Origin: an uncultured bacterium
GTDB taxonomy: Bacteria > Zhuqueibacterota > QNDG01 > DTFT01
DNA length: 45,388 bases
Direction of reading: 5' to 3'
Assembly (NCBI GenBank): GCA_964577095.1
Contig: CAZNXX010000003.1
Span: forward strand, 1 to 45,388
Shown: in pieces, positions 38,439-41,615 of the stretch
Layout: every line of letters begins with the position of its first letter
How positions within the stretch are numbered: position 1 is the stretch's first letter
The notes under the pieces: generated by a model
Told to the model about the DNA's origin: nothing
The model's input: the letters and a program-made list of their open reading frames with translations, nothing else
Databases searched by the model: none
Program-made: the position numbers and the translations under genes

Positions 38439-38486
38439 ACGTTAACACGTTAGCACGTTAGCACGTTTGAACGTTATAACGTGTCA
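38439..38486. repeat. Six tandem 8-bp repeats ACGTTNNN
   Basis: ACGTTAAC ACGTTAGC ACGTTAGC ACGTTTGA ACGTTATA ACGTGTCA. The array overlaps the stop codon of the protease gene. Confidence 0.9.
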
Positions 38487-38978
38487 ACAGGAGGGGGCTG
38501 CGGAAAAACCGGGAAGTGTTTCGATGGCCTTGATCAGCGTTTCGGAGAACGCGTCGAGCGCTGCGGCAACAGGCGCAGAAACCTCATGGAACAGCCCGAG
38601 CGTCATAGGCTGCAGGCCGATAATGAGAATCCTGCACGGCATTTCCCGCTCGATGTAATCCGTCAGCACGAAAAGCGGCAGTCGGTGCGTGGAGAAAGAG
38701 ATGCCGGTGATCTCGACCGGGTCCGCGGCCACCACGGTGCCGGGCTCGCGTCCGAAATCAACGCTGTCGACGATGACGAGGTGGGATGGCGCAAATCGCC
38801 GGATTTCTCCGGTGAGGTTCTCAGGCGCGGTTTCGCCCATGAAGGCACGGAACCGGGACGGATCCGGAAGGGACGCAAAACGCGCCTCAAGCCTGCGGCA
38901 CAGGATCAGGCCCGCGGCATCGTCTCCGCGCAGGTCGGACCCCACGCCCAGAATGCCGAGCGACCGGACGTCCTTCAG
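38484..38978 (-). CDS. [NiFe] hydrogenase maturation endopeptidase (HycI/HyaD family); start codon unresolved
   Basis: ..SLGILGVGSDLRGDDAAGL.., ..VIVDSVDFG.. and ..STHRLPL.. match the hydrogenase protease family. There is no ATG/GTG/TTG upstream of the first beta strand, only CTG (38978 or 39002). The frame is +1 relative to the preceding gene. Confidence 0.7.
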   Translation of the reverse strand: MKDVRSLGILGVGSDLRGDDAAGLILCRRLEARFASLPDPSRFRAFMGETAPENLTGEIRRFAPSHLVIVDSVDFGREPGTVVAADPVEITGISFSTHRLPLFVLTDYIEREMPCRILIIGLQPMTLGLFHEVSAPVAAALDAFSETLIKAIETLPGFSAAPSC

Positions 38979-38991
38979 AAAAGGGGGAAGC

Positions 38992-39420
38992 TTATTTTTC
39001 AGCGACTGGGGCAGGGGCGGGTTCCGTCGGGGACGGCTCCGCCTGCGGGGCGGCCGGAGCGTCCGGAGATACCGGTGGAGCGGGCGCGGCCTCGAAGAAC
39101 GCCTTGAGCTGGCCCTGGTTGTATCCCGCGAGCTCGTAGCGGTCGGTCGCCTCGAGGGCGCTCTTGGGGCAGGAGTCCACGCACTGGGCGCAGTAGATGC
39201 AGCGGCCGAGGTCGAAATGCGCCTCGAAGCGCTTCTCCCCCACCTTGCGGATCTCGATCGCGTCCGCGGGGCAGTCGCGCATGCACATGCGGCAGCCGAT
39301 GCAGTTTTTGGCGATGAATCGGATCTGGCCGCGGAAATGCGCGGGCATCTCGAACCGGACGGCCGGGTACCGATGGGTGGCCGGCTTCCGGAAAACGGAG
39401 GCGATGAGCGTGCTGAACAT
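38992..39420 (-). CDS. Group 4 hydrogenase 2x[4Fe-4S] subunit (MbhN/EchF/NuoI-like) with Pro/Ala-rich C-terminal tail
   Basis: 142 aa from the ATG at 39420. CIGCRMCMRDCP and CIYCAQCVDSCP. The last ~35 aa are APAPPVSPDAPAAPQAEPSPTEPAPAPVAEK. Confidence 0.85.
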   Translation of the reverse strand: MFSTLIASVFRKPATHRYPAVRFEMPAHFRGQIRFIAKNCIGCRMCMRDCPADAIEIRKVGEKRFEAHFDLGRCIYCAQCVDSCPKSALEATDRYELAGYNQGQLKAFFEAAPAPPVSPDAPAAPQAEPSPTEPAPAPVAEK

Positions 39421-39434
39421 GGCACCGGGTCTGA

Positions 39435-40376
39435 TCATGAAAAGAAAATCCCTTTCAGCACCAGGTTCACGATCACCTGCAGGAAGGCGATCGGCGCGAG
39501 CACCTTCCAGCAGAAGCCGATCATCTGGTCGATGCGCAGTCTCGCCACGAGCGAGCGGATCAGGGCGATCAGCGCGATGAGGAACAGTATCTTCACAAGA
39601 AACAGGACGAAACCTGCGGCGGCCGGCAGGTCGAGACCGAAGGGCAGGAAGACCGCGGCCAGCAGGGACGCGCCCGTGATCATCTCGATGTCGAAGGACA
39701 GCCGGAACCACGCGAGAAAGCGGCCGCTGTACTCGGTGAAGGCCCCGCCCACGATCTCCGTCTCGGCTTCCGGGATGTCGAAGGGAACCTTTTCCAGCTT
39801 GCCGAGCAGGGCGATCAGCGCGATGACGAATCCCGCGGCGTTCGCGGCCAGGGCCCATGGCCTCGCCTGGAAGAAAACCGTCAGCTCCGACAGGGACCAC
39901 GTGCCCGCGAGCAGGCAGGGTCCGAGCACGGCCAGAAAAAGCGGCACTTCATAGGCATAGAGCTGGGTCAGGGTGCGGGCCGACCCGAGCAGGGCGTACA
40001 CGGACTTCGACGTGTACCCGCCGAGAAAGTAGGTGAAGGTCGGAATGGTCAGCAGGTACAGAACGACGATCGCGTCCCCGCTGAACGAATACAGCGATGC
40101 TGAATTCCACAGGGGGATGTAGAAGAACGCGGTCACCACCGCGGTCAGCGCGAACACCGGCATGAGCCTGAAGAGGCTGCGGTCCACGCCGTCCGGCACG
40201 AGCTCCTCCTTGGACAGGAGCTTGATGAAATCGGCCAGGGGCTGGAACCATGGCGGCCCCATCCGGTTCTGGAACCGGGCGTACAGCCTCCGGTCGATGA
40301 ACTCTCCGGCCAGGCCCGCGACGGCGAGAAACAGGAGGCCCGGAAAAACGAGAATCTGGATCAGCGCAGTGCCCAT
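39435..40376 (-). CDS. Group 4 hydrogenase membrane subunit (MbhM/EchB/HycD, NuoH-like)
   Basis: 313 aa polytopic. ..RRLYARFQNRMGPPWFQPLADFIKLL.. is the NuoH-family N-terminal signature. Confidence 0.85.
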   Translation of the reverse strand: MGTALIQILVFPGLLFLAVAGLAGEFIDRRLYARFQNRMGPPWFQPLADFIKLLSKEELVPDGVDRSLFRLMPVFALTAVVTAFFYIPLWNSASLYSFSGDAIVVLYLLTIPTFTYFLGGYTSKSVYALLGSARTLTQLYAYEVPLFLAVLGPCLLAGTWSLSELTVFFQARPWALAANAAGFVIALIALLGKLEKVPFDIPEAETEIVGGAFTEYSGRFLAWFRLSFDIEMITGASLLAAVFLPFGLDLPAAAGFVLFLVKILFLIALIALIRSLVARLRIDQMIGFCWKVLAPIAFLQVIVNLVLKGIFFS

Positions 40377-41615
40377 TTAAAGCTTCTTCATCCTTCGGGT
40401 GAGTGACCGGTTCAGTTCCGTGAAATCAACGCCCCGGTTCCGGTAGAAATCGATGCTGTGCTTCCTCAGGCGGCCCCAGTCCATGCGGTCCCGCGGCCCC
40501 GCCTCCGCCCGGTCGATCTCGACGGCCCGGTCGGTGCAGGAAAAGCAGGGGTCGATGGCCGCGATGACGATGGGCATGTCGGCCAAGTTGTTGTCCCTCA
40601 GCATGTGCGAAACGGCCTGGAGGTTCGCCAGCGTGGGCGCGCGCACTTTCACGCGTTCGGGTTTTTCGGTTCCGTTCGCCTTCACGTAGTGCACGTCCTC
40701 GCCGCGGGGCGCCTCGTACCGGCTGAGGGCCTCCCCGGCCGGAACCTTGCGCGGCGCCTTGACCGTGATCGGGCCGTCGGGCATGTTCTTCACGATCTGG
40801 CGGATCATCGAATAGCTCTCCATCAGCTCGCCGAGGCGGACGAGGGTCCGTCCGTACACGTCGCAGTGGTCGTTCGTCACGACTTTGAAGTCCAGCTCAT
40901 CGTACGCGAGATAGGGATCGTCCTTCCGGATGTCGCGGGCCACGCCCGACGCGCGGCCGGTCGGGCCGACCACCAGGAGCCGGAGCGCGTCCTCGTGCGT
41001 CACCACACCGACGCCGGAAAGGCGCTTGATCACCGTGGTCTCCTCGGAGCAGACCTGGATGTAGTACTTCGTCTGCTCCTCGAGGCGGTCGACGCCCTTG
41101 AGAATGGTTTCGGACAGTGCCGCGTCCACGTCGCGCCGCACGCCGCCCACGGTATTCATGCTGTAATGCACCCGGTTGCCGGTGACCGCGGCCAGCAGGT
41201 CCATGACCACCTCGCGGTCGCGCCAGGAGTACATGAGCAAAGTGTCGAACCCGATCTCGTGCCCGGCCACGCCGAGCCAGAGCAGGTGGCTGTGCACGCG
41301 CTCCAGCTCGCCGACGAGCATGCGGATGTACTGGGCGCGGCGGGGCACCTGGAGCCCGGCTATTTCCTCCACGGCCTGGATAAACGCGGTGCCGTGGGAA
41401 TGCGAGCAGATGCCGCAGATGCGCTCGACGAGGTAGATGTCCTGGGTGTAGGTGCGGCTTTCCGCGCCCTTCTCCACGCCCCGGTGGTTGTATCCCATGC
41501 GCACGCTCGCGGCCGTGATCTTCTCGCCGCGCAGGGTGATGAGAAAGCTCTCGGGTTCCTTCAGGGCCGGATGCTGGGGCCCGACCGGTATCTGAACGGT
41601 TCCGAAATCAGGCAT
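40377..41615 (-). CDS. Group 4 [NiFe] hydrogenase large subunit (MbhL/EchE/HycE, NuoD-like)
   Basis: 412 aa. N-terminal Ni-Fe ligands RICGICSHSH, C-terminal DPCFSCTDR, followed by a 49-aa extension. Confidence 0.9.
   Translation of the reverse strand: MPDFGTVQIPVGPQHPALKEPESFLITLRGEKITAASVRMGYNHRGVEKGAESRTYTQDIYLVERICGICSHSHGTAFIQAVEEIAGLQVPRRAQYIRMLVGELERVHSHLLWLGVAGHEIGFDTLLMYSWRDREVVMDLLAAVTGNRVHYSMNTVGGVRRDVDAALSETILKGVDRLEEQTKYYIQVCSEETTVIKRLSGVGVVTHEDALRLLVVGPTGRASGVARDIRKDDPYLAYDELDFKVVTNDHCDVYGRTLVRLGELMESYSMIRQIVKNMPDGPITVKAPRKVPAGEALSRYEAPRGEDVHYVKANGTEKPERVKVRAPTLANLQAVSHMLRDNNLADMPIVIAAIDPCFSCTDRAVEIDRAEAGPRDRMDWGRLRKHSIDFYRNRGVDFTELNRSLTRRMKKL

Follow-up and report, generated by a model that had tools for sequence, protein, structure and literature searches.

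The closest described relatives of the gene considered here are the HycI-type [NiFe]-hydrogenase maturation endopeptidases (MEROPS A31), represented by structures from Escherichia coli (2I8L, 2E85) and Thermococcus kodakarensis (5ZBY). We found a gene of this type in a stretch of 45,388 nucleotides (nt) from an uncultured bacterium of the Zhuqueibacterota (GenBank assembly GCA_964577095.1, contig CAZNXX010000003.1), hereafter called the window. Like HycI, its product has the GDD, IVD and STH metal-ligand motifs and a similar fold (template modelling (TM) scores of 0.76/0.85 to 5ZBY), and its gene closes a group-4 membrane-bound [NiFe]-hydrogenase operon, the large subunit of which carries a DPCxSCTDR motif and an extension. 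Unlike HycI, the window protease has at its N-terminus an additional amphipathic helix (about 13 residues) that other members of its subfamily also have, and its gene is nested in the upstream iron-sulfur (Fe-S) gene and lacks a canonical start codon. We consider it moderately likely, from comparisons of related sequences, that the protease has a gene of its own, which starts within the 3' end of the Fe-S gene and overlaps it, is initiated at a CTG codon and is coupled to translation of the Fe-S gene.

Weak non-canonical start codons are known in bacteria. The E. coli genes infC and pcnB start at AUU, and CUG is listed among the start codons of translation table 11. As in infC and pcnB, the near-cognate start proposed here is kept among orthologues, presumably holding expression low. 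Unlike in infC, no autoregulatory logic is evident, the start lies inside the coding region of another gene, and initiation is deduced from the sequence. Coupled gene pairs with long overlaps are also known. For example, in the coat and lysis genes of the phages fr and MS2 the downstream start lies 38-50 nt upstream of the stop [PMC12548453, PMC6728339]. The window genes are similarly co-directional, and the proposed downstream start precedes the upstream stop (by 23 nt here, with a family median of 38 nt). In most described cellular coupled pairs the overlap is 1 or 4 nt and the start AUG or GUG, whereas here the overlap is longer, the start would be CUG, and coupling is presumed. Lastly, the locus resembles prfB, which encodes release factor 2 (RF2), in the +1 relation of the two frames at a stop codon. 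In contrast to prfB, the window clade lacks a conserved slippery codon and a Shine-Dalgarno (SD) stimulator 3 nt upstream, and its orthologues are not fused.

The protease gene and its missing canonical start

The protein encoded downstream of the Fe-S gene belongs to the hydrogenase maturation protease superfamily. It matches PF01750 with 50.5 bits (cut-off 23) and TIGR00072 with 88.2 (cut-off 47.45); its score against the equivalog TIGR00142, 100.6, is under the cut-off of 119.1, and the protein is a HycI-like member of the superfamily and not a strict TIGR00142 equivalog. Among proteins of known structure its sequence matches 5ZBY (E = 1e-23). An AlphaFold model of the 176-amino-acid (aa) product has a mean predicted local distance difference test score (pLDDT) of 91 and a predicted TM score of 0.88, with a mean pLDDT of 85 over the first ten residues, and the top Foldseek hits are 5ZBY (E = 3e-15, with the TM scores given above), 2I8L, 2E85 and 1CFZ. 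The model places a helix at residues 5-12 and strand beta-1 at residues 19-24. In an alignment of 74 family sequences, G23, G25, S26, D31 and D32 are invariant, and almost the same holds, in the N-terminal helix, for L9 and L13. The segment GVGSDLRGDD aligns to the GDD motif of the E. coli and T. kodakarensis HycI proteins. The metal ligands D31/D32 (GDD), D83 (IVDS) and H110 (STH), which we take to correspond to Asp/Glu16, Asp62 and His90 in the numbering of E. coli HycI and HybD, are invariant in the same 74 sequences. Profile, fold, metal ligands and the cognate large subunit thus all point to a HycI-type endopeptidase, with predicted proteolytic activity.

The protease gene is under purifying selection. 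We compared the window with two other genomes of the same genus (G003 and G002), in which the arrangement is the same and the protease is 91% and 88% identical, and computed the ratio of nonsynonymous to synonymous differences per site (pN/pS). This ratio is 0.16 over the 150 codons of the protease core (pS 0.37). In the 15 codons between the Fe-S stop codon and GVGS, the ratio is again 0.16 in the protease frame, as against 0.70 and 5.07 in the other two, although the counts behind these values are small. The Fe-S core has a ratio of 0.10 in its own frame and of 2-3 in the other frames; upstream of the CTG codon discussed below, both frames are relaxed. Because the protease core and the codons before GVGS both have a pN/pS of 0.16, we conclude that the protease gene is functional and is translated from a position upstream of ATT 38954 and GTG 38945, which fall within the first beta strand.

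None of the usual start codons is available upstream of these. The initial annotation had described a protease gene without ATG, GTG or TTG ahead of its first beta strand, in a frame +1 to that of the Fe-S gene at GAA AAA TAA, and both statements were correct. The protease frame is open back to GTG 39425, and no ATG, GTG or TTG occurs in it between that codon and the beta strand SLGILGVGS. Across the junction the sequence is GCT GAA AAA TAA GCT, with a run of five A's at 38999-38995 of the minus strand. GTG 39425 itself, which would give an open reading frame of 313 aa, was rejected as a start; an in-frame stop codon follows just after the matching GTG in G003, and the pN/pS of 2-3 in the alternative frames of the Fe-S core marks this long open frame as an artefact of high GC content. 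We also rejected the ancestral start site (in the region of VVF(H/S)A), which reads AGG in the window, CAT G having become GAG G, and is unusable. The frame does contain CTG codons, at 39014, 39002 and 38978. The initial annotation had noted the last two, which indeed exist, and had overlooked the one at 39014.

Lack of a canonical start is unusual for this protease family. Scans of GTDB genomes and JGI metagenomes with the protease yielded 160 more loci, all at most 52% identical to it, from Omnitrophota, Planctomycetota, Kiritimatiellia, Elusimicrobiota and others. An ATG, GTG or TTG is present 12-40 codons before GxGS in 133 of 138 related loci. Among the 134 loci with enough upstream sequence to determine the relation of the frames, the Fe-S gene has the same relative frame (+1) in 120, and an in-frame fusion of the Fe-S gene and the protease gene occurs in none. 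The start lies at codon -21 before the G of GxGS in 66 of these 134 relatives and at codon -22 in another 11 (GTG in 40 and ATG in 36), and it is as late as codon -18 in only one. In the relatives the Fe-S stop codon lies downstream of the protease start, with overlaps that range from -13 to 47 nt, and an SD-like AAGGTGG precedes the protease start in 69 of 95 loci. The window sequence SLKNKLPPFLKDVRSLGILGVGS can be aligned, with no gap, to the family N-terminus M-x-x-LKxxLxxxLxxAxRVAVLGVGS. These comparisons, which took in about 145 related loci, show that both the +1 offset and the overlap with the Fe-S gene are ancestral.

In most of the family (loci L021-L180), the AAGGTGG sequence lies about 10 nt upstream of the protease start and is encoded by conserved K-L-K-V-V codons of the Fe-S gene. 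The amino acid motif and the ribosome-binding site may constrain each other.

A CTG codon conserved throughout the clade

The window belongs to a group of relatives that share its arrangement. Ten sequences (the window, G003, G002, L185/186, L187, L190, L181, L188, L189 and L182-184), the intermediates L181-L190 having been found through the protein database and in contigs, form a single clade with 100/100 support in a maximum-likelihood tree, divided into two sub-clades. The path from the window to L181, whose protease is 56% identical, is 0.74 substitutions per site. In all ten sequences the codon at -22 (counted from the G of GVGS; CTG 39014-39012 in the window) is CTG, whereas variation is seen at -23 and at -21 to -19. 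Of all offsets between -30 and +3, this one alone has a table-11 start codon in all ten sequences, and no clade lineage has an insertion or deletion between this CTG and GxGS. Six of the nine clade lineages lack a canonical start from which the conserved protein could be made.

Read in the Fe-S frame, the T of this CTG falls on a third codon position with four-fold degeneracy. The Pro codon that covers the CTG is CCT in nine of nine cases (the tenth sequence has ACT), as against 8 of the 107 other Pro codons of the tails (7.5%). The nearest outgroup, L153, has an ATG at exactly -22, from which its protein begins MAQGIKLQLKNRL; the window reads LPQSLKNKLPPFL, a similar peptide. Between the CTG and GxGS, codons -17 to -1 change synonymously in the clade (TTT/TTC, TCG/TCC, CTG/TTA/TTG), the kind of conservation expected of coding sequence.

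The other candidate codons are less constant. Offset -18 (39002 in the window) is CTG in eight of ten sequences and CCG in L187 and L181, and offset -10 (38978) is TTA in G003 and L181, TTC in L188 and L182, and TTG in L187. Offset -2 is GTG or ATT in seven of ten (GTA in L181 and L187, GTC in L188), and offset +1 is GTG in nine of ten (GTT in L187). The initial annotation had listed CTG initiation among its explanations, at 38978 or 39002. Initiation at a CTG is supported by the clade, although the codon would be 39014, since the other two are not conserved.

In L181, L187 and L190, which belong to one sub-clade, a TTG is present at the ancestral start site (VVFDA), at codons -44, -44 and -40 relative to GxGS. 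Translation from this TTG would extend the protease by an Arg/Ser/Pro-rich stretch of 18-22 aa.

The C-terminal tail of the Fe-S subunit is a second peculiarity of the clade. In the window the subunit ends ...FFEAAPAPPVSPDAPAAPQAEPSPTEPAPAPVAEK*, and its Pro/Ala/Glu-rich tail is present as first described, with a length of 31 aa and not 35. Tail lengths in the clade range from 22 to 63 aa, with little conservation of sequence. Tails of low complexity, rich in Pro, Ala, Gln and Ser and from 22 to about 80 aa long, were seen among the clade members L181-L190 and in the proteins P0003-P0006, P0008, P0012 and P0015 (about 80 aa in P0004). Pro/Ala tails are also found in Kiritimatiellia (L031, L034, L042), in a metagenome-assembled genome (MAG) of the Myxococcales (L054) and in L065; each of these is terminated by a stop codon, and the protease has its own ATG. 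The initial annotation had taken the linker-like tail as a sign of a fusion. This does not hold, in that relatives with a tail have a stop codon and an ATG-initiated protease, and the Pro/Ala-rich tails are natural C-termini. The comparison with orthologues that it had put forward did find separate genes with ATG or GTG, none of them fused. The tails of the Kiritimatiellia and of the Myxococcales MAG have a separate origin, and there the other frame of the same DNA encodes an Arg/Pro-rich N-terminal extension of the protease.

Based on these comparisons, we propose CTG 39014-39012 as the most likely start of protease translation; the two genes would then share 23 nt, up to the end of the Fe-S stop codon, and the product would be a 176-aa HycI-type endopeptidase with the N-terminus (f)Met-Pro-Gln-Ser-Leu-Lys-Asn-Lys. 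The overlap and the frame are inherited from the family, in which an ATG or GTG is found at the same place behind the AAGGTGG SD sequence in the Fe-S gene. In the clade, the low-complexity tail would have grown between the ancestral SD sequence and the start, and the start codon would have become CTG. Initiation is probably weak. The SD sequence of the window is no more than a GGA at -11, and none is present in some clade members, so that initiation probably relies on ribosomes that are translating or terminating on the Fe-S gene. Such coupling could work through unfolding of the mRNA, or through back-scanning over about 20 nt from the TAA. In phage fr, the coat and lysis genes are coupled with a start 38-50 nt upstream of the stop [PMC12548453].

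Several observations weigh against this proposal. The SD sequence is reduced to GGA in the window and is missing in L181, L188, L190 and L182. This GGA does fall within the peak for this genome; in a survey of genes filtered by their GC content at third and second codon positions (GC3/GC2), an SD sequence precedes about 55% of the confident genes, with a peak of GGAG/GGA at -12 to -9 ahead of ATG starts that are confidently called. In L181, L187 and L190, the TTG at the ancestral site could serve as the start. A role as start codon alone predicts drift from CTG to the better starts ATG, GTG and TTG, yet the first C is invariant. Another reason for the invariance of the CTG could be a Leu conserved within a protein that has a more upstream start, or selection may favor a weak start. 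Near the junction, the frame-specific pN/pS values come from small counts, as noted above, and the clade has a single origin, so its ten sequences are not independent.

Alternative explanations

Initiation might use one of the other near-cognate codons (CTG 39002 or 38978), alone or together with 39014, or ribosomes might reinitiate after the TAA with relaxed start-codon requirements. We regard this as unlikely. CTG 39002 lies 8 nt before the end of the stop codon and is kept in most of the clade, CTG 38978 is matched by a TTG in L187, and the model is slightly less confident over its first ten residues than elsewhere. The substitutions listed above, which replace the 39002 codon by CCG in two lineages and the 38978 codon by TTA or TTC in four, argue against either codon as the common start, as do the rarity of starts as late as -18 in the family and the family-wide conservation of the helix residues L9 and L13. 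Starts within the first beta strand, at ATT 38954 or GTG 38945, would yield a truncated protease and are very improbable. They are used by the NCBI and JGI gene calls, and GTG or ATT is common in the clade at the two offsets concerned. However, L187 has neither (GTT at +1 and GTA at -2), and L181 and L188 lack a start at -2 (GTA and GTC). The coding-type conservation of codons -17 to -1 and their low pN/pS in the protease frame also argue against such starts, which would remove strand beta-1, present in all solved HycI and HybD structures. That the gene is a decaying, untranslated remnant without a start codon we consider highly improbable. The lack of a canonical start, and the change at the ancestral ATG site from CAT G in relatives to GAG G, are what one might expect of such a remnant, but the pN/pS over 150 codons in three genomes that have diverged at synonymous sites is not. 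In addition, the reading frame has stayed open and the metal ligands unchanged in a clade whose members have diverged to about 52% identity, and the large subunit still has a 49-aa extension that needs removal.

The remaining alternatives would join the two genes into one protein. Programmed +1 frameshifting at AAA-TAA-G, similar to that in prfB or antizyme, would produce an Fe-S-linker-protease fusion of about 35 kDa with the junction peptide ...PAPVAEKKLPPFLK. If so, the protease would, at least in part, be anchored through a disordered Pro/Ala linker on the same complex in which it processes the large subunit, and the tails of variable length would be true linkers. The tail is indeed disordered, linker-like and variable in length, every clade member has the +1 frame difference, and the sequence A AAA TAA is common to seven of the ten sequences, including L181 despite its divergence. 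Recoding of the prfB kind, which the initial annotation had also entertained, was nevertheless not substantiated, and we think it quite improbable. The stop context is GTT TGA C in L188 and L189 and CGA TGA A in L182, and none of the P-site codons AAA, GTT and CGA re-pairs well in the +1 frame by the pairing rules. We found no SD-like stimulator upstream of the AAA at the junction, no stable RNA structure there (the junction folds no better than shuffled sequences, z = +0.9), and no hit to recoding elements in an Rfam search of the junction. A joined window protein, used as a query against 5.8 billion proteins, returned only Fer4-only or HycI-only matches with a top coverage of 56%; no single protein that combines Fer4 with HycI domains was found in that collection. 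The ancestral overlap, with a protease that starts at an ATG or GTG of its own, accounts for the +1 offset. In a fusion, the conserved CTG and protease residues 1-4 would be skipped. Transcriptional slippage was also considered and rejected, as the A-runs (A5 in the window, A4 in the sister genomes, A7 in L188 and L189) are too short and too inconsistent.

A fusion gene could likewise be hidden if the A5 run were wrong through a homopolymer or assembly error, since loss of one A would join the frames. This suggestion of the initial annotation can be set aside as having a negligible probability. Ten assemblies from different samples and assemblers (GTDB genomes, JGI, Logan and ENA) all keep the +1 offset, and the sister genomes G003 and G002 read GGAAAATAA (GGA AAA TAA, A4), so that the A5 run arises from a G/A substitution and not from an insertion or deletion. 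A protease gene with its own CTG start is therefore the explanation that we favor.

The operon, gene annotation and implications

The protease gene is the last of a group-4 (Mbh/Hyc-like) [NiFe]-hydrogenase operon on the minus strand, in which the genes for antiporter-like, NuoK-like, NuoC-like, large, NuoH-like and NuoI/HycF-like 2x[4Fe-4S] subunits precede that for the HycI-type protease. The features discussed are collected in Table 1. The ATG of the Fe-S gene (39438) overlaps the stop codon of the NuoH-like gene as ATGA, and its TAA is at 38994-38992; the remaining genes of the operon are also joined by ATGA or abutting junctions. The protease gene ends at TGA 38486-38484. In the large subunit, DPCFSCTDR occupies residues 355-363 and is followed by 49 residues, and because of these a maturation endopeptidase is needed. 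The C-terminal piece removed from E. coli HycE is shorter, at 32 aa.

Table 1. Coordinates of the genes and sequence features at the protease locus of the window
Feature	Position	Strand	Remarks
Proposed initiation codon CTG, 22 codons before the G of GVGS	39012..39014	-	CTG in 10/10 clade sequences
Weak SD-like GGA, 11 nt upstream of the CTG	39023..39025	-	AAGGA in G002
Overlap from proposed protease start to Fe-S stop, 23 nt; presumed translational-coupling zone	38992..39014	-	
Second in-frame CTG (-18 codons)	39000..39002	-	CCG (Pro) in L187, L181
Third in-frame CTG (-10 codons)	38976..38978	-	TTA in G003, L181; TTC in L188, L182
N-terminal amphipathic helix, residues 5-12 LKNKLPPF	38979..39002	-	AlphaFold; encoded partly before, partly after the Fe-S stop
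GVGSDLRGDD, end of strand beta-1 and metal-binding acidic pair	38919..38948	-	Family alignment
Low-complexity Pro/Ala/Glu-rich C-terminal tail of the Fe-S subunit, 31 aa	38995..39087	-	APAPPVSPDAPAAPQAEPSPTEPAPAPVAEK
HycI-type [NiFe]-hydrogenase maturation endopeptidase gene, re-delimited, 176 aa + TGA	38484..39014	-	PF01750, TIGR00072
NuoI/HycF-like 2x[4Fe-4S] subunit gene, 148 aa + TAA	38992..39438	-	Fer4_7 45.5 bits; PRK08348 and NuoI profiles
NuoH-like subunit gene	39435-40376	-	
[NiFe] large subunit gene	40377-41615	-	PF00346 + PF00374 matches; RICGIC at residue 65
49-aa C-terminal extension of the large subunit, presumed protease substrate	40380..40526	-	After DPCFSCTDR(363)

The closest named rpoB relatives of the organism are candidate division KSB1 MAGs, at 75-77%. 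Its genome has a second, distant gene resembling hydrogenase proteases (G000:C81:6148-6534; 30% identity, E = 4e-6), which presumably serves another hydrogenase. Two further HycI-like matches, more distant and each with a single in-frame TGA, were seen in related genomes, at G037:C8:31940-32371 (L006) and at G003:C17:19988-20416.

All public gene calls encountered for this clade start inside or after the first beta strand, which the boundaries proposed here correct. More than 17 cluster representatives in the protein database, 56-87% identical to the window protease (P0087-P0104), are all called as N-terminally truncated proteins, which indicates that gene callers find no canonical start. The calls begin with VLGVGS, as most of those from JGI do, or with MGSDLRGDD (P0089), or are 134-162 aa long. 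The NCBI entry for G002 has 153 aa and starts at the GTG of GVGS, and the window's own gene call has 118 aa, from an internal ATG (MGETAPENL). Models or expression constructs based on such calls would be without a core strand and the N-terminal helix.

The locus does not reveal a new mechanism. It offers a comparative example of a CUG start that would have been kept for a long time inside another gene, and such examples help to train start-site predictors, which usually ignore CTG. In E. coli, CUG initiates at 1-2% of the level of AUG [10.1101/063800]. A similarly low level would suit an enzyme that is needed in catalytic amounts, and we suspect that the outcome in this clade is a sub-stoichiometric endopeptidase, required only catalytically for removal of the 49-aa extension of the hydrogenase large subunit.

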